A stretch of 32,945 bases of DNA from Synechococcales cyanobacterium VAR_4_metabat_354 (GCA_031414775.1 JANOQI010000010.1:1-32945); one strand, 5' to 3'; shown: positions 23,031 to 31,808, numbered from the stretch's first letter. The notes: generated by a model not told the origin, from the letters alone. Program-made: numbers and translations.

Positions 23031-24296
23031 GTGAAAATATTAGTCATCGGTAATGGCGGCAGAGAACATGCGATCGCCTGGAAACTCCTCCAGTCTCCTA
23101 AAGTTACTCAGGTGCTATGTGTACCGGGCAACGCCGGTACGGCACAGCTCGATAATTGTCAGAATATATCGCTGTCGATCGATGATTTTGCCAGTATCAC
23201 CCACTTGGTGCAAACCGAAAAGATCACCTTGGTAGTAGTAGGCCCAGAATTGCCCCTAGCCAAAGGAATTGTAGATAATCTACAAGCTCAGCAGATTCCA
23301 GTTTTTGGTCCACCCCAAGCCGGAGCCAGAATTGAATCTAGCAAGTCTTGGGCAAAAGAAATGATGCTGAAGGCCGGGGTGCCCACGGCCAAGTCCGAAA
23401 CCTTTACCGATGCGGTGGCTGCCAAAGAATATATCCAGCAGCAGGGAGCACCCATTGTGGTGAAAGCTGATGGACTAGCAGCAGGCAAAGGGGTCATTGT
23501 CGCTTTTTCTATTGCGGAAGCCCAACAGGCGATCGATCAACTCTTTAGCCAAGGCTTTGACCTAGTAGTGGTGGAAGAGTTTTTAGAGGGTCAAGAGCTG
23601 TCGGTGTTGGCGATTACTGATGGAGTTACGATTACCTCATTATTGCCCGCCCAAGACCATAAACGGATTGGCGATGGCGATACCGGAGCCAATACCGGCG
23701 GCATGGGTGCCTACGCCCCAGCACCGATCGGCACCCCGGAACTAATGCAGCGGGTGCAAAAAGAGGTTCTAGAACCAATGCTGCGCACTTTTCAGCAAGA
23801 AGGCATTGATTATCGTGGGATTCTGTATGCTGGCCTAATGATTACACCTGCTGGTGAGGTACAGGTATTGGAGTTTAATTGTCGTTTTGGCGATCCTGAA
23901 ACACAAGCAATTTTGCCATTACTGGAAACGCCTTTGGTAGAGCTAATGGCAGCTTGTGTCGAACAGCGGTTGGCTGATTTGTTGCCGATCGATTGGTCGA
24001 AGGCGGTAGCGACTTGTGTGGTGGTGGCGGCTGGTGGTTATCCTGGTAACTATCACAAGGATCAACCGATATCGCTCGCTTCGCCCACGCCGGATCATTC
24101 AATTATTTTTCAGGCTGGTACAACTTTAAAAGATGGTCAATTGGTGACAGATGGCGGTCGAGTACTGGGAGTGACGGCGCTAGGGGATAATTTTCAGGAG
24201 TCGATCGATCGGGCTTACAAAGCAGTGGGCACAGTGCAATTTGACGGGATGTATTATCGACGAGATATTGGCCAACGAGCTTTGGGCAAAACTTAA
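23031..24296 (+). CDS. purD: Phosphoribosylamine--glycine ligase
   Basis: GNGGREHA, VGPE, KADGLAAGKGV, QDHKR, NTGGMGAY, EFNCRFGDPE, GGRVL. Confidence 0.98.
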   Translation: MKILVIGNGGREHAIAWKLLQSPKVTQVLCVPGNAGTAQLDNCQNISLSIDDFASITHLVQTEKITLVVVGPELPLAKGIVDNLQAQQIPVFGPPQAGARIESSKSWAKEMMLKAGVPTAKSETFTDAVAAKEYIQQQGAPIVVKADGLAAGKGVIVAFSIAEAQQAIDQLFSQGFDLVVVEEFLEGQELSVLAITDGVTITSLLPAQDHKRIGDGDTGANTGGMGAYAPAPIGTPELMQRVQKEVLEPMLRTFQQEGIDYRGILYAGLMITPAGEVQVLEFNCRFGDPETQAILPLLETPLVELMAACVEQRLADLLPIDWSKAVATCVVVAAGGYPGNYHKDQPISLASPTPDHSIIFQAGTTLKDGQLVTDGGRVLGVTALGDNFQESIDRAYKAVGTVQFDGMYYRRDIGQRALGKT

Positions 24297-24299
24297 ATC

Positions 24300-24411
24300 G
24301 GCGTTGCTGATTTATAGTATGAAAACCCAATTTATCAAAAATGAAAACCAGATTCAGTAAAGCTTCTATATTTTCGATTCATTCGCTTTCATATCTCGAT
24401 TCAGCAACGCC
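24300..24411. mobile_element. Miniature inverted-repeat transposable element (MITE), 112 bp
   Basis: Left end GGCGTTGCTGATTTATAGTATGAAA versus reverse complement of right end GGCGTTGCTGAATCGAGATATGAAA. No ORF; starts 3 nt after the purD stop. Confidence 0.75.
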
Positions 24412-24428
24412 CGCTTCTTAATCTCATC

Positions 24429-24800
24429 TCATACCAAGGATTCGATTGTTACTATCCCACCTTCAATAGCTTCAATCTGAACTTTAAACCCGTACAGTAA
24501 ACTCATCCCGACTAATGGAGCAGCTTCGGAAGCGGCTACATCAATAATCTGGATCTGACCATCCCAAATTACTGTTGCTTTGTACATTTCAAAAATCACT
24601 TCGCTACCATCGCCCAAAGTACCAACATCACGAAAATACCAAGGTAATCCGAGCGCAGAGATCCTAGACATCGGCAGAGACAGAAAGCCTGTAAATCCTG
24701 TGTCAATAACAGCTTCAACTATTTGTTTGGAGGCATTTTCATGACCGATTGCTACTCGAATAATGGCTTCACAATTTTGATTTACGATTCCCTGCATCAT
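24429..24800 (-). CDS. Clan AA (retropepsin-like) aspartic protease
   Basis: IDTGFTGFLSLP catalytic motif, LGDG flap and PLVGMSLL. ATG at 24800 overlaps the upstream stop (ATGA). Confidence 0.85.
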   Translation of the reverse strand: MMQGIVNQNCEAIIRVAIGHENASKQIVEAVIDTGFTGFLSLPMSRISALGLPWYFRDVGTLGDGSEVIFEMYKATVIWDGQIQIIDVAASEAAPLVGMSLLYGFKVQIEAIEGGIVTIESLV

Positions 24801-25099
24801 GCCGTTTGCTTCAGACTTTGAGAACCAAAGCGGTAGACTGCTCGATGTCCGATCCGAATTACCCAAGGTTGTGCATCTGGGTATTGATCGTAAAGTCGAT
24901 CGACTGCGGTGATCGGTTTATCGGCTATTTCAAAGGCTCCAGTTTCAATATCGATCGCGACAATCTTACCCCGATCGATCTGTTCGTCTATTTGTTGAAG
25001 CACTTGAGATTGATAAATCTCATCGCCCCGTCGGGCAAATTCTTCTTTACTGTAGCGGGGTTGCCGTTGGTGAAACCTCTCTTCTGGAGATACTGCCAT
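24797..25099 (-). CDS. Small hypothetical protein (DUF5678-like) coupled to the aspartic protease
   Basis: 100 aa with GKIVAIDIETG...RIG; GAGG RBS upstream; ATGA overlap with the protease. Confidence 0.7.
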   Translation of the reverse strand: MAVSPEERFHQRQPRYSKEEFARRGDEIYQSQVLQQIDEQIDRGKIVAIDIETGAFEIADKPITAVDRLYDQYPDAQPWVIRIGHRAVYRFGSQSLKQTA

Positions 25100-25220
25100 G
25101 AGCTTGACCTCGTTTTGACTTTACTCTCTCATGTTAACCTAAGCGATCGAGCTGTTAGCAATCGATCGATAGTCCAAAGCCCGATTCTTATTCTGAGAGA
25201 CTCTGCCAACGAACAGCATC

Positions 25221-25246
25221 ACGATTCAGCAAAGCTGAGGCTACGC
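25221..25246 (-). repeat. Small hairpin insert in a HIP1-like site (SDR5-like)
   Basis: Minus strand reads GCG|TAGCC-TCAGC-TTT-GCTGA|ATCGT, i.e. HIP1 halves split by an 18-nt hairpin insert. Confidence 0.4.
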
Positions 25247-25419
25247 CAACTAATCCTCCCACCATCATCGATCTACAAAAACAACCACAGAATGATCGAT
25301 AGCCTCAAGATAGATCGACGATCCCCACCATCTTCAATTCAATCTAAATCACCACAATTCGCCGAATTCTCAAATCTTACTAGCCAGAGCATTACTATTA
25401 TTAATAGTGTCTGTAACTT

Positions 25420-26192
25420 CTATGATTTCAGGAAAATTGAAACTGAACCTGGAGAAGGGGTATAAACAGTCTGTAACTTGAATTTTCTTTTAGAATAAGT
25501 ATCATTCAGTATATTTTGTAATGCATACGCTACATCTCTCTCGTTCTCAGCAAAGTATCGAATTTGATCATCAGTTGCTTTGTCAATTTGAGAAGATTGA
25601 GGAAGAACTTGAATGTTAGATTTAACACCAGTTTTCTCTAATGCACTCTTGATTTCAAAAGCAAGCCTTCTTTGTTCTGATTTATCTTGATTGTAGAGAA
25701 TCTGTATTTTATAGTTATTTGTGATATCAACTAAAGACGTAATTGATGTATTCACCCTTGGGTTTAAAAGTGGAGTATTATCTTTTATAGTGCTCTGAAT
25801 AGCAATGTTTATAGAGTTTGTATTTTGAATTGCTTCCCTATTTTATTTAGTTGCTCTTCTATTTTTGGATCGTTTACATTATTATTTTCTTTTAGTTTAG
25901 AAATGGTACTGCTTGACTCTTCTAGATTTTTTTAAGTCTTTCACTTTGATTTGTAGACTCAATTAATTTACCATCAGTTTTCTCGAATTGTTTTTTTCCA
26001 AGTAACGCCACCAATTTGAACTTCGACAACACCAGCAGCAGCTAATTTTTCATTTACAAACTTTGGTACTGTAATAAGCATGAAAAATATCGATAATATT
26101 GAAACTTCCCGAAGAATATTTAAAATGCTTTGAGCAATTTCAATTCCTTCTTTGCCTTTAAGGTTTCCTTCTTTTGGAGAATTATTCGTCAT
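25420..26192 (-). pseudogene. Frameshifted AT-rich gene for a ~257-aa membrane-anchored protein (joins ORFs 25974-26192 and 25420-25755)
   Basis: A continuous reading frame is restored by three single-base indels in A tracts (+ strand T runs at 25991-25997, 25927-25933 and 25841-25844). N-terminal hydrophobic segment present. Confidence 0.65.
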
Positions 26193-26245: not shown

Positions 26246-26271
26246 GGTTTTGAAATCCCCGTTTCAAAACC
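26246..26271. terminator. Hairpin downstream of the duplicated gltB 3' end
   Basis: GGTTTTGAAA-TCCCCG-TTTCAAAACC, a 10-bp perfect stem 20 nt past the duplicate stop codon. Confidence 0.5.
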
Positions 26272-26291: not shown

Positions 26292-26369
26292 CTAACTACC
26301 TCCAATCCGCGCAACATCGCGAGAATTCTCTTCAAATGCAGCACCGAGAGCATCATCACCACTCAACCC
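26292..26369 (-). repeat. Diverged direct repeat of the last 26 codons of gltB
   Basis: Encodes [25 protein letters not shown] versus glt[26 protein letters not shown] (27219-27296). 65/78 nt identical by manual alignment. Confidence 0.95.
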
Positions 26370-26457
26370 AGAGGATTAAAACAGGTCGTTTTTTAGATGC
26401 CGAACCATCGGTGAAAGTTATTTCAGCTATCCACAGTTCACCTGCTTTAATAGTCAT
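26356..26457 (-). pseudogene. Truncated PemK/MazF-family toxin (N-terminal 33 aa)
   Basis: MTIKAGELWIAEITFTDGSASKKRPVLILWVEW* shows the GE.W...F.....K.RPVL MazF N-terminal pattern. It overlaps the upstream ORF and is cut off at the gltB repeat. Confidence 0.75.
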
Positions 26458-26749
26458 CAGAAAGCCCTTCATCTTCTGAACTGTAGCTATTTAGGAAGGC
26501 ATCATGAGTACGAATGGAACCAATAGAATTAGGTTGAATGGTAATCAGATCGATTAAATCCATTACATCTTGTTCGACAGTGCGTGAGGGTAGGGAGTTG
26601 AGAACATCTCGATCGGATAAGTCAATAATTTCCGAGATATATTGACGGACTCGATCGGATATTTCTGGCTTCCACTCTTGCAGCTTAATTCCGAGTTTTT
26701 CAATCAGGGCATCCATTAGTGTCTTCATTACAGATGATAATTGCTGCAT
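26447..26749 (-). CDS. Hypothetical antitoxin-like protein, possibly chimeric
   Basis: Small acidic protein overlapping the MazF-like start, with an acidic tail AFLNSYSSEDEGLSDDY. Start codon uncertain (alternatives MKTL, MDAL). Confidence 0.55.
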   Translation of the reverse strand: MQQLSSVMKTLMDALIEKLGIKLQEWKPEISDRVRQYISEIIDLSDRDVLNSLPSRTVEQDVMDLIDLITIQPNSIGSIRTHDAFLNSYSSEDEGLSDDY

Positions 26750-26762
26750 CTATCTAAGTTTT

Positions 26763-26972
26763 CTAACTCGTTTTTAGTTGCGCTAGCTTTTGCTTAATTA
26801 AAATTTCAACGTCCTTAACCTCGGCATTTGATTTGGGAATGTCGAAAGTTGCTGGAGATGCTTCCGCAGTGAATCGATCGACAAACATATGGAAGGCAGA
26901 TTGATCGTCAGGGTGAGCTATAACATAAGCTCTTAACTCACCTTTAGTCATGGTGTTAAAGTCAGGCTTCAT
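26763..26972 (-). CDS. DUF6887-like small protein
   Basis: MKPDFNTMTKGELRAYVIAHPDDQSAF pattern. ATG at 26972 overlaps the upstream stop (ATGA). Confidence 0.75.
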   Translation of the reverse strand: MKPDFNTMTKGELRAYVIAHPDDQSAFHMFVDRFTAEASPATFDIPKSNAEVKDVEILIKQKLAQLKTS

Positions 26973-27145
26973 TCTAGGAATCTCCAAAGACCATTAGGGT
27001 AGATCTCTATCTGTATGTTATCACCAGCCAAAATAAATAGGTTGCCAGATCGCTCATCCAAGCGAACGACGAAAATAGGCGTGAAGGTGTTGGTTAGGGA
27101 TTGGCACAGGGTTACACACCGGATGCCTTGCTCGGCAGTTGGCAA
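26969..27145 (-). CDS. DUF6888-like small protein (58 aa; not in ORF track)
   Basis: TTG start after GAGG; MPTAEQGIRCVTLCQSLTNTFTPIFVVRLDERSGNLFILAGDNIQIEIYPNGLWRFLE*. Confidence 0.75.
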   Translation of the reverse strand: MPTAEQGIRCVTLCQSLTNTFTPIFVVRLDERSGNLFILAGDNIQIEIYPNGLWRFLE

Positions 27146-27174
27146 GATTTGGATACCTCATAATTGTCGAATAC

Positions 27175-27198
27175 TACGCTAGATCGCGATCTAGCGTA
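27175..27198. repeat. Perfect 24-bp palindrome
   Basis: TACGCTAGATCGCGATCTAGCGTA, located 20 nt downstream of the gltB stop. Confidence 0.9.
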
Positions 27199-27218
27199 TG
27201 GGTGATGTTTTAATGAAC

Positions 27219-30200
27219 TTAACTCCCCCCAATCCGTGCCACATCGCGGGAATTCTCCTCAAACGCCGCATTGAGCGCCTCATCACCACTCAACCCCGAG
27301 GCCAAAGCATTCTCGATCGCTTGCAATACTCGTTTATAGTCCCGCGGCATCACCTTTACAAACTTCGGCACCATCGCCTCCCACTGTTCCAGCACCTGCC
27401 GAGCTTTTTGGCTTTGAGTGTAGTCAGCATGTTTTTGAATCACCTGCCGCACCTCGGCAATTTCCGATGGATCAGTTAGAGTTTCTAGTCCCACCATTTG
27501 CGTATTACAGCGCGTCGCAAAGTCGCCCTGCTCATCCAGAATATAAGCCACCCCACCACTCATTCCCGCCGCAAAGTTGCGGCCAGTCTGACCGAGGATA
27601 AATACTTTCCCGCCCGTCATGTATTCACAGCCATGGTCGCCGATCGCTTCCACCACTGCTGTTACTCCGGAGTTCCGCACGCAAAAACGCTCCCCCGCCA
27701 TGCCACTAATATAGATCTCGCCGCTGGTGGCTCCGTACAGCGCCACGTTACCGACAATTACGTTCTCAGCAGCTACAAAAGTAGAAGCGGCTGAAGGATA
27801 CAAAATGATCTTGCCGCCACTCAAGCCCTTACCGATGTAGTCATTGGCATCGCCTTCCAGTTTCAAGGTCACACCTTTAGGGATAAACGCCCCAAAACTC
27901 TGACCAGCACTACCCTGAAAATGTAGTTGGACAGTATCTTCTGGCAAGCCTTGCCAATGGCGTTTGGTAATTTCGTTACCTAGGATGGTGCCCACCGCCC
28001 GATTGATATTGTGGATCGGCAGTGTTGCTTGAACAGGTTCGCCTTTCTCGATCGCACCTTTACACAAATCCAATAACTTAGTCATGTCCAGAGATTTCTC
28101 TAGGCCATGATCTTGAGGAATTTGGCAATAGCGTCCCACTTCCGACCCGGCTTCTGGTTGATACAGGATCTTGGAGAGGTCAATGTTTTTGGCCTTCCAA
28201 TGATCGATCGCCTGTTTAGCTTCCAACACATCAGTGCGTCCCACCATTTCGTTGAGGGTGCGGAAACCCAATTGAGCCATCAGTTCGCGCAGATCTTGAG
28301 CAATGAACTTCATGAAGTTCACAGTGTGTTCCGGGTCGCCGGTGAAGGTTTCCCGTAGTTGAGGATTCTGAGTAGCAATCCCGGCGGGGCAAGTATTCAA
28401 GTGGCAAACTCGCATCATAATGCAGCCTAAAGTAACTAGCGGCGCAGTCGAAAAACCAAATTCTTCAGCGCCCAACAAAGCAGCGATCGCTACATCTCGA
28501 CCAGTTTTTAGTTGGCCATCAGTTTCCACTACAATCCGGCTACGCAGATTGTTCAACACCAGAGTTTGGTGGGTTTCGGCTAAGCCTAATTCCCAGGGCA
28601 AGCCAGCATGTTTGATCGAAGTTTGCGGCGAAGCGCCGGTACCGCCATCAAAGCCAGAGACTAGAACCACATCGGCATGAGCTTTCGCTACACCTGCTGC
28701 GATCGTGCCGACACCAACTTCCGATACCAGCTTCACGTTAATCCGCGCATCACGATTGGCATTCTTCAGGTCATGGATTAATTCCGCTAAGTCTTCGATC
28801 GAATAAATATCATGGTGGGGTGGTGGCGAAATCAAACCCACACCTGGTGTGGAATGGCGAACTTTGGCAATCCAGGGATAGACTTTTTTACCCGGTAGCT
28901 GACCACCTTCACCGGGTTTGGCACCCTGCGCCATCTTGATCTGAATTTCCCGCGCCTGGGATAGATACAAACTGGTTACTCCAAACCGCCCAGAGGCTAC
29001 TTGCTTAATACCACTATTTTTAGAGTCGCCCTGCTCATTAGTCCAGGTATAGCGCTCGGGGTCTTCGCCGCCTTCACCAGTATTGGACTTGCCCCCAATC
29101 CGGTTCATAGCGATCGCTAACGATTCATGAGCTTCTTGGGAGATCGAACCATAACTCATCGCCCCCGTTTTGAAGCGTTTCAGAATGGCTTCGATCGGTT
29201 CCACTTCTTCGATCGGAATTGACTGACTGGGCTTGAAGGCCATCAGCCCGCGCAGAGTAAAGTGTTCGTGATCTTGTTGATTTACCAACGCTGCATATTT
29301 TTTGTACAGTTCGTAGTCCCCAATACGAGTGGATTTTTGCAATAGGTGAATTGTTTCGGGGCTGAAGAGATGAGCCTCGCCATCCTTGCGCCATTGATAC
29401 TCGCCGCCCACTGCCAGGGTCTGGCCTTTGGCTGGTCGATCAGGAAAAGCGTGGGTATGTCTGGCCAGAGCTTCTTGAGCGATTACCACTACATCCGCAC
29501 CCTCAATCCGCGAAGCTGTGCGAGTGAAGTACTTATCGATCGTGGATTGATTGAGTCCAATCGCTTCAAAAATTTGGGCACCACGATAACTTTGCAGAGT
29601 CGAAATCCCGATCTTAGAAGCAATTTTGGTCACGCCCTTAGTGGCCGCTTTGATAAAGTTCTTGACTGCCGCTGCTGGTTCCACATCTAGCAATAACTTC
29701 TGAGCGATCATGTCCTCGATCGTCTCAAAGGCCAGATAGGGGTTAATGGCTCCACAACCATAACCAATTAAAGTCGCAAAATGATGTACTTCGCGCGGCT
29801 CACCAGATTCTAGAACCAGACCGACCTTGGTGCGCGTACCTTGCAAAATCAAGTGATGATGCAAACCAGCCACCGCCAATAACGCTGGAATCGGAGCGTT
29901 TTCAATAGAAACACCTCGATCGCTCAAGATCAGAATACTAACGCCGCGTTCGATCGATTGATCGGCCAACCGGCAGATTTCTCCCATTGCTGCTTCTAAA
30001 CCGGTTGCCCCTGATGAAGGTGAGAACAGCATCGAAATAGTTACAGACTGCAAACCGCCGGAGTTCAAATTTTGGAGCTTAGCCAGATCATCGTTACTAA
30101 GGATCGGTGACTTCAGCGCAATTAAATGGCAACTTTCAGGGGTAGGCTTCAGCAGGTTTTGCTCGGCACCAATAGTGGTCTGCGCCGAAGTAATAATCTC

Positions 30201-31808
30201 TTCGCGGATGGAATCGATCGGAGGGTTGGTAACTTGAGCAAACAACTGCTGGAAGTAATCGTAGAGCAACTTTGGTCGATTAGACAATACGGCTAATGGG
30301 GTATCAGTACCCATCGATCCGATTGCTTCCACCCCATCCTTGGCCATCGGCGCTAGCAACAGGCGCAGTTCTTCAAAGGTATAGCCAAAGGCCATTTGCC
30401 GTTGAATCAAATCTTCAGCATTACTCGCAGCAACTACGGTTGCGGCGGGCAAGTCTTCCAACCTAACCAGGTTTTGATCTAGCCACTGTTGATAAGGATG
30501 TTGAGTGATAACTTCTTTCTTAATTTCTTCATCACTAACAATCCGGCCAGCGGCTGTATCCACCAAGAACATCCGACCAGGTTGAATCCGGCCTTTGATC
30601 GCCACCCGTTCCGGTTCGATCGGCAACACCCCGGCTTCAGAAGCCATAATCACCAGATCATCTTTGGTCACGTAGTAGCGAGATGGTCGTAATCCATTGC
30701 GATCGAGAACTGCACCGATCATCGTGCCATCAGTAAAGGCGATCGAGGCTGGGCCATCCCAGGGTTCCATCAAACAGGAATGATATTCATAGAATGCTTT
30801 TTGTTCAGCACTCATCGATTCATGTGCTGTCCAGGGTTCTGGCACCATCATCATCATGGTGTGGGGAAGCGATCGACCAGAAAGAGTCAGCAGTTCTAAA
30901 GCATTGTCAAAAATCAGCGAGTCACTGCCATCAACGTTAATGACCGGCTGGATTTGTTGCATGTCAGCACCAAACAAATCGGATTCAAACAAAGCTTGTC
31001 GCGCTTGCATCCAGTTGATATTGCCGCGCAAAGTATTGATTTCACCGTTGTGAGCAATATAGCGATAGGGATGCGCCCGTTCCCAACTAGGAAAAGTATT
31101 GGTACTAAACCGGGAATGAACCAAGGCCAAAGCACTTTCCAAGTCAGGATCTTGGAGTTCCGGAAAGTATTCGCCCACCTGCACCGGCATCAACATCCCT
31201 TTATAGACAATGGTGCGGCAAGAAATGCTGGACAAATACCAATAGGCATCAACTTTCGCCGCTCGGATCGCGTTGTGCGCCAGCTTCCGAATCATATAAA
31301 GTTTCCGCTCGAAAGCTAACTTATCCGCTAAATCATCTGATCTCTGAATAAATACTTGCTGCACAGACGGCTCGCTCGATTGAGCAGTATTACCTAGAGA
31401 AGAATTATCCGTTGGCACATCTCGCCACCCCAATACTTTTTGACCAACACTGGCTACCACCTGTTCAAAAATCTGACGACTGCGATCGCGTTCAGCGGGA
31501 TCTGGAGAAGCGTAGCTCATCCCCACGCCATACTGACCAACAGCAGGCAAAGTAAACCCAGCAGCCCGCGCCACTTTTTGCATAAATTTATGCGGCACCT
31601 GCATCAAAATACCAGCACCGTCACCGGTATTGGTTTCACAACCGCACGCACCACGATGATCGAGGTTCACCAGAATGGTCAGAGCTTGTTGAACGATCGA
31701 GTGCGATTGCTGCCCCTTCAAATGCGCGATGAATCCGACGCCGCAGGCATCATGTTCAAACTGCGGATCGTACAAACCTTGTTTTGGAGCGGGTTGATTA
31801 CTATTCAT
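27219..31808 (-). CDS. gltB: Glutamate synthase large subunit (probably NADH-GOGAT type)
   Basis: EHDACGVGF amidotransferase Cys, [38 protein letters not shown] [3Fe-4S] motif, GXGXG domain. Confidence 0.96.

Follow-up and report, generated by a model that had tools for sequence, protein, structure and literature searches.

The window analysed here is the whole of a 32,945-nt stretch from Synechococcales cyanobacterium VAR_4_metabat_354 (GCA_031414775.1 JANOQI010000010.1:1-32945), and it lies on contig C10 of a 3.56-Mb genome in 64 contigs, which is cyanobacterial by the genes it contains. It carries gltB, which encodes the large subunit of glutamate synthase, and, further downstream, a second, orphan copy of the last 26 codons of this gene. 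The orphan tail is fused into a mazF toxin gene and truncates it, a feature missing from an earlier annotation made by a model from the DNA sequence alone (the sequence-only reading). Codons 31-109 of mazF are absent, replaced by the orphan tail with its hairpin and, after these, an AT-rich pseudogene. Read from gltB towards the right border of the locus, the features are:

27219..31808, minus strand: gltB, glutamate synthase large subunit, 1529 aa (Pfam GATase_2, Glu_syn_central, Glu_synthase and GXGXG; NCBIfam PRK11750)
27219..27296, minus strand: working gltB tail, native type (8 differences from the sister genome G007 against 14 for the orphan; site pattern OPPPPPPOP-PPO)
27175..27198, no strand: perfect 24-nt palindrome, 20 nt past the gltB stop (flank in common with G012)
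26969..27145, minus strand: DUF6888 gene, 58 aa (PF21828, E 1e-27)
26763..26987, minus strand: DUF6887 gene (PF21826, E 4e-19)
26447..26749, minus strand: 100-aa open reading frame (ORF), antitoxin-like by position, without family match
26368..26457, minus strand: first 30 codons of a PemK/MazF toxin gene (109 aa in an intact relative; intact relatives match PF02452)
26351..26376, minus strand: microhomology at the junction between mazF codons 28-35 and the gltB tail (from alignments)
26292..26369, minus strand: orphan 26-codon gltB tail, probably a foreign allele (from comparison with the working tail and with relatives)
26246..26271, no strand: inverted repeat with 10-bp arms, 20 nt past the orphan stop (hairpin scan)
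25420..26192, minus strand: AT-rich frameshifted gene (intact 257-aa homologue in G011, 74% nucleotide identity; without family match)
24421..25286, minus strand: 100-aa ORF and clan AA protease-like gene (TIGR03698, 51.4 bits, below the cut-off of 57.35)
23031..24296, plus strand: purD, the convergent right border (in G001 and G007 the region after purD differs)

The two gltB tails align in register, 927 nt apart, with 13 differences in 78 nt. Synonymous third-position differences affect ten codons, among them the stop (TAA/TAG), and the protein changes only by E>D (one nucleotide) and N>G (two nucleotides). The alignment bears out this repeat pattern as the sequence-only reading had described it, together with an inverted repeat 20 nt past each stop (27198-27175 and 26271-26246) and an islet of ~850 bp, which measures 849 nt between the copies and holds cargo of the toxin-antitoxin (TA) type. 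A BLAST search of the 3.56-Mb genome returned this second copy of the tail as the only one (82 nt, 84%, E 1e-18). The G+C content of 26291-25290 is 32%, versus 50% in gltB. We dismissed the 20-nt spacing between stop and hairpin as a signature of the element: a perfect hairpin was detectable in 15 of 37 other gltB tails scanned, beginning 6-29 nt past the stop. A terminator scan, run with a sigma-70 scan, gave no excess over shuffled sequences.

Contigs from four sequencing runs, which belong to one study and three of which may be the source of the genome, bridge the joint between mazF and the orphan in all four runs and the boundary between the gltB stop and the cargo in two; none among the contigs listed spans both tails. 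Run X4 contains a low-depth variant of 26436-26468 with the same junction and four other letters in the mazF/antitoxin region.

Intact mazF genes of the relatives G018 and G020 align with the window as far as CTCTGG and then look like the gltB tail. In an anchored point test with 15 parent pairs, the sole basis of our microhomology statistics, the observed score was reached by 0-15 of 1500 random position pairs. The gene order in a further relative, G433, is gltB, DUF6888, DUF6887, the antitoxin-like gene, an intact mazF and the same 100-aa ORF, and it is collinear with window positions 27299-26351 (84%) and 25225-24811 (78%), with the intact mazF between them. Judged from these alignments, the arrangement in G433 is likely to be the earlier state of the locus. 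Compared with it, the window has lost ~0.4 kb (mazF codons 31-109 and a spacer) and gained ~1.1 kb (the orphan, its hairpin and the AT-rich gene). Since G433 has the islet together with an intact mazF, the newer DNA is probably the orphan and the sequence downstream of it, not the islet between the repeats. The islet also looks older than the orphan because G007 retains a DUF6887 remnant directly behind its gltB stop.

The allele pattern of the two tails was compared with that of relatives belonging to the window's own group, g1, and to the genus g2. Across the last 2.4 kb of the working gltB, each 120-nt segment is 82-92% identical to G007 and identity does not fall towards the end, and at the 13 sites where the tails differ G007 has the base of the working tail at nine, that of the orphan at three and neither at one. 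The tails nearest to the orphan are four of genus g2, with 7-8 differences in 72 nt versus 14 to G007, and the bases past the orphan stop match the flanks of G024 and G012. Under local duplication followed by neutral decay, 61% of the changes would be expected to be non-synonymous, versus the three of 13 seen (p=0.006). This supports the view, put forward in the sequence-only reading, that both tails evolved as working gltB ends, and the orphan likely derives from a working gltB of another lineage. The same reading held that an incoming end had displaced the resident one, and here the comparison does not support it: it is the working tail, not the orphan, that resembles G007, and gltB has no recombination breakpoint against this sister. 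Such a breakpoint is visible in the g1 genome G001, where the last ~450 nt of gltB are 82-92% identical to g2 alleles versus 69-82% upstream. In that genome (L041) both the 3' end and its hairpin flank are g2-type, a clean inter-genus end swap, which shows that gltB 3' ends cross genera and that such swaps can be seen by comparison.

Additional tails are common among relatives. A gltB-tail match was found in 28 of 39 family genomes, with at least two matches in 10 of these 28 (1/10 in g1, 9/18 in g2), some of the pairs sitting on separate short contigs. In G020, five matches are crowded into 16 kb together with cargo of the PIN, PemK and DUF4351 types; short orphans occur also in G039 and G031, and orphans in relatives start from ~47 to 1,800 nt before the gene end. 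Across a phylum sample of 401 genomes, 60 had a tail match and five of the 60 had two, three of them from family f18.

Gene-end copies of this kind are not confined to gltB. A genome-wide scan of 2,543 ORFs of at least 150 aa for partial copies within 15 kb, counted after paralogue-internal and multi-copy repeat matches had been dropped, yielded 12 3' ends downstream on the same strand, two 5' ends upstream on the same strand, two 3' ends upstream on the same strand and nine others. On inspection, nine of these appear to be genuine scars (gltB, a GldG-like gene, an ABC permease gene, ureF, lipA, hsdM, hsdR, an ABC ATPase gene and a gene on contig C27), and the copy of clpB, although classed as internal, likewise runs through a stop into copied flank. 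TA-like genes are frequent in the cargo (PIN, DUF2281, DUF5615, Fic). Some of the asymmetry between 3' and 5' copies may come from the weaker conservation of 5' ends. In samples from two relatives, G017 (400 kb) had two such tails and no mirror case, and G020 (393 kb) one of each. Relatives provide empty sites for the GldG-like gene (G001), the ABC permease (G007), clpB (G001 and G007) and ureF-ureG (several g1 genomes), while for gltB a genome with one copy and joined flanks was not found among the relatives compared. At the GldG-like and ABC permease genes the working copy is native, the orphan differs mostly synonymously and the flank past the orphan is native, a pattern of the insertion-duplication type. 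Polarity is uninformative at lipA (16 versus 18 differences to G007) and at ureF, whose orphan has decayed. In G012, judging by its alleles, the pattern at gltB looks like displacement of the resident end. Several routes probably give the same anatomy; what homology-facilitated illegitimate recombination (HFIR), insertion-duplication, displacement and array deletion have in common is a foreign gene end and a microhomology joint, made without an integrase.

For the gltB locus the best reading, which we hold tentatively and somewhat short of an even chance, is right-anchored HFIR, an integrase-free insertion-deletion at a TA-cassette hotspot. In what we infer of donor, uptake route, anchor side and order of events, the ancestor would already have had gltB, DUF6888, DUF6887, the antitoxin-like gene, mazF and the 100-aa ORF, as in G433. 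The incoming DNA would have come from the same locus of another lineage, bringing a gltB end, its hairpin, the AT-rich gene and the 100-aa/protease pair. It would have paired by homology within the shared 100-aa/protease pair, a candidate right-hand anchor that is also found downstream of gltB in G433 and G016, and its free end would have joined mazF where mazF resembles the gltB tail. The outcome would be the loss of the rest of mazF and the gain of the newer segment, with the native gltB end unmoved. In published descriptions, an HFIR product has gained ~1 kb, lost ~1 kb and shows 3-10 nt of microhomology (PMC3240628). At the gltB locus the microhomology lies at the non-homologous joint, the insertion is coupled with a deletion on the ~1-kb scale when G433 stands in for the ancestor, and the shared segment 25286-24421 lies at the other end, although no donor was found. 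The genome also has a ComEC-type gene. The sequence-only reading had named an HFIR-type event, and a one-sided homologous plus illegitimate exchange is indeed the right class. By such events the gltB 3' end is a hotspot that stacks TA cassettes and leftover tails.

Several observations weigh against this proposal. HFIR is described as rare in the laboratory (PMC3240628, PMC5361080). In an unanchored local alignment of the cargo with gltB the microhomology was not the best match. The order of gltB directly followed by the AT-rich gene occurred in none of the 39 family genomes, one metagenome locus and three genome loci searched, and the AT-rich gene itself was matched only in G011 among the 39 family genomes. 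Other g1 tails are about equally distant from both copies and the tail is short, so genus g2 is no more than a candidate for the donor lineage. Moreover, G007 is only ~85% identical, and a donor of the window's own clade, which is conceivable, would leave no breakpoint. Finally, the scars at the GldG-like and ABC permease genes, with native flank past a foreign orphan, fit insertion-duplication better.

Insertion-duplication of a tail-tagged unit by a single crossover in the last bases of the native gltB is unlikely at this locus, yet it is the alternative that survives best. The microhomology between gltB tail and mazF, direct and ~0.93 kb apart, would free a circle or a tandem duplicate in a G433-like donor, and integration would leave a native working end and a foreign orphan. 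The required cis arrangement is present in G433. At the GldG-like gene, 15 of the first 16 sites in the empty-site genome G001 have the base of the working copy, the last three have that of the orphan, and G001 also has the orphan's flank (37/40 nt). This places a single crossover in a 14-nt identical block; the ABC permease shows a like pattern against G007 (flank 34/40). Most scars are spaced 0.8-1.4 kb, and in E. coli incoming DNA has been described to circularise and then undergo a single crossover (PMC3240628). At gltB, however, the bases past the orphan stop look g2-type and not native, the islet is older, as the DUF6887 remnant of G007 suggests, and the collinearity with G433 on the far side would be a coincidence. 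A 927-nt skip, as in an excised form, was in none of 14 joints listed, which is no evidence of absence as contigs drop rare forms.

Rather doubtful is the model of the sequence-only reading, in which a donor gltB end plus the islet displaced the resident end by left-anchored HFIR. It would produce the same anatomy with the same microhomology, and in G012 the working end does look divergent and the orphan typical of its genus. It would be workable with a donor of the window's own clade and a resident end from an earlier import, as in G001, but that requires an extra earlier event. In addition, gltB has no breakpoint against G007, and G007 sides with the working tail; a working end of donor type next to an orphan of the host lineage was not what we found, in a comparison without conspecific genomes.

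Quite improbable, in our estimate, is that a longer array with an intact mazF and a long orphan gltB piece lost its middle by deletion at the mazF/orphan microhomology, the orphan then being foreign but older. Long orphans with internal deletions at short repeats do occur in G014, G020, G022 and G023; no such intermediate was observed, however, and the foreign tail would still need an origin, in an earlier event. Local duplication of the gltB end with neutral decay is very improbable: the orphan is nearer to some tails than to others by a few bases only, but the substitution pattern contradicts decay and the sequences past the two copies are unrelated. Equally remote is att-site integration in gltB, an option of the sequence-only reading, here by a tyrosine recombinase acting in trans and with the element since decayed: six relatives share a junction 221 nt before the end of gltB and the genome has 11 Phage_integrase matches, but none of these lies on contig C10 (serine recombinases were not searched for), the variable orphan starts show that the crossover position is not fixed, the joint cuts a cargo gene, and about nine unrelated genes bear such scars.

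The recurrent junction coincides with CGATCG, the core of the highly iterated palindrome HIP1, which in its full form, GCGATCGC, has 655 sites in the host genome. Published work connects HIP1 with both site-specific and illegitimate recombination, and with transformation that depends on methylation (PMC4390886, PMC13756078). Seven orphan copies (one each in G012, G016, G018, G438 and G443, two in G020) start within ~8 nt of one gltB site, the shared junction site 221 nt before the gene end, where CGATCG is present in 16 of 23 g2-type alleles, and these seven follow five different cargoes. The orphan of family f18, one junction common to three genomes, starts at a full GCGATCGC. In a tally made by hand, with contig ends, internal deletions and one insertion sequence (IS) insertion left out, an exact CGATCG lay within 8 nt of 7 of 29 junctions (9 if two are read via the parent allele) and of 5 of 25 distinct sites. 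Against a background of 8-13%, the enrichment has p values of 0.007-0.07 for junctions and 0.05-0.22 for sites, kin among them not being independent. The window's own joint has its nearest CGATCG site 15 nt away. The recurring breakpoint signal is only suggestive. We consider it unlikely, on present evidence, that it reflects a cyanobacterial integrase-free cassette system in which foreign gene 3' ends serve as homology handles for stacking TA and defence cargo while the free joint is steered to CGATCG. If such a system existed, the scars would be natural records of HIP1-guided DNA integration and the function of HIP1 would become testable. Whether HIP1 acts in DNA integration, a question of long standing, could be tested concretely through the CGATCG breakpoint in relatives.

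When a genomic island integrates at the 3' end of a gene, it restores that end, and a copy of the end with synonymous differences remains beyond the cargo. The gltB locus likewise has a diverged gene-end copy beyond the cargo, but no integrase, no fixed crossover and no replacement of the working end. Known HFIR has one homologous end, one microhomology joint and a gain of ~1 kb with deletion in a competent host without an integrase (PMC3240628, PMC2884548), features that the event proposed here would share. The gltB case differs in being inferred from genomes and not by experiment. It differs also in that the hotspot gene would have been present in both partners, the joint thereby taking in part of the donor's own gltB allele and looking like a target duplication. 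Type VI secretion system (T6SS) effector-immunity and rhs arrays also stack modules behind a conserved gene and contain orphan 3' ends, for which HFIR is credited (PMC5361080). Here, by contrast, a housekeeping enzyme is the anchor, and the repeated part is conserved, unlike the variable tip of a toxin. Type II TA pairs make up the cargo, and at all three loci where a sister genome is informative the native copy is the working end and the foreign copy the orphan. The type known as insertion with long target duplication, described also from Microcystis, likewise has cargo without mobility genes between long direct repeats (PMC2853133); the gltB insert lies between direct repeats of >30 bp and has no mobility gene. 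Empty-site relatives belong to that type too, and in the host genome they are known for the other scars named above. That type is described for restriction-modification genes, with repeats mostly >90% identical (PMC2853133), whereas the gltB insert has no restriction-modification genes, its cargo being DUF6888, DUF6887 and the PemK fragment. The repeats here are synonymously diverged gene ends (77-91%), and as mazF is cut the insertion is not clean. The class is thus covered by HFIR, by orphan ends of T6SS/rhs arrays and by long target duplication, and the gltB case is a variant of it. We found no description of orphan gltB tails in the literature searched, which did not cover most subscription journals. 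The locus is a clear natural case of integrase-free gain of accessory genes at the end of a housekeeping gene, with the likely earlier order, the cut gene and the joint all visible. It also calls for caution in taking an orphan for the former resident end, since the orphan was foreign in all three informative loci.

Among the neighbouring genes, gltD lies on a separate contig (C31) of the host genome. In G009, G035, G028, G038 and G279 it follows gltB directly or past small cargo, and from its placement in these outgroups gltB appears to be of the NADH/gltD-partnered type. Upstream of gltD, C31:19590-22860 holds small accessory genes including a second 100-aa/protease pair. The overlapping DUF6888/DUF6887 pair occurs behind gltB in at least seven genomes, and no paper naming either family was found, most subscription journals lying outside the search. 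The antitoxin-like 100-aa ORF is directly upstream of mazF in every relative seen.

Other scars showed further variation. In the complete genome G014 (L028, 6822-8689), gltB of this type persists only as three 3' fragments, one of them split by an IS, and gltD and the 45%-identical paralogue are intact. In the host genome (L084, G000:C34:50527-52652), a beta-N-acetylglucosaminidase gene and the decayed ureF tail lie between ureF and ureG, which adjoin in other g1 genomes. A short GC-rich palindromic repeat directly precedes the orphan junction in scars of G017 (L162) and of contig C2 of G020, and one lies past both tails in G031 (L053). Three f18 loci (L058, L059 and L065; protein scan for L058 only) have a Y1 (IS200-like) transposase gene amid short repeats just downstream of gltB, which we take to be of the type associated with repetitive extragenic palindromic (REP) sequences. 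Past purD, window positions 24300-24411 hold a ~110-nt element that has terminal inverted repeats and 94-98% identical copies on contigs C58 and C36; it is a candidate for a small mobile repeat where the gltB region borders on purD.

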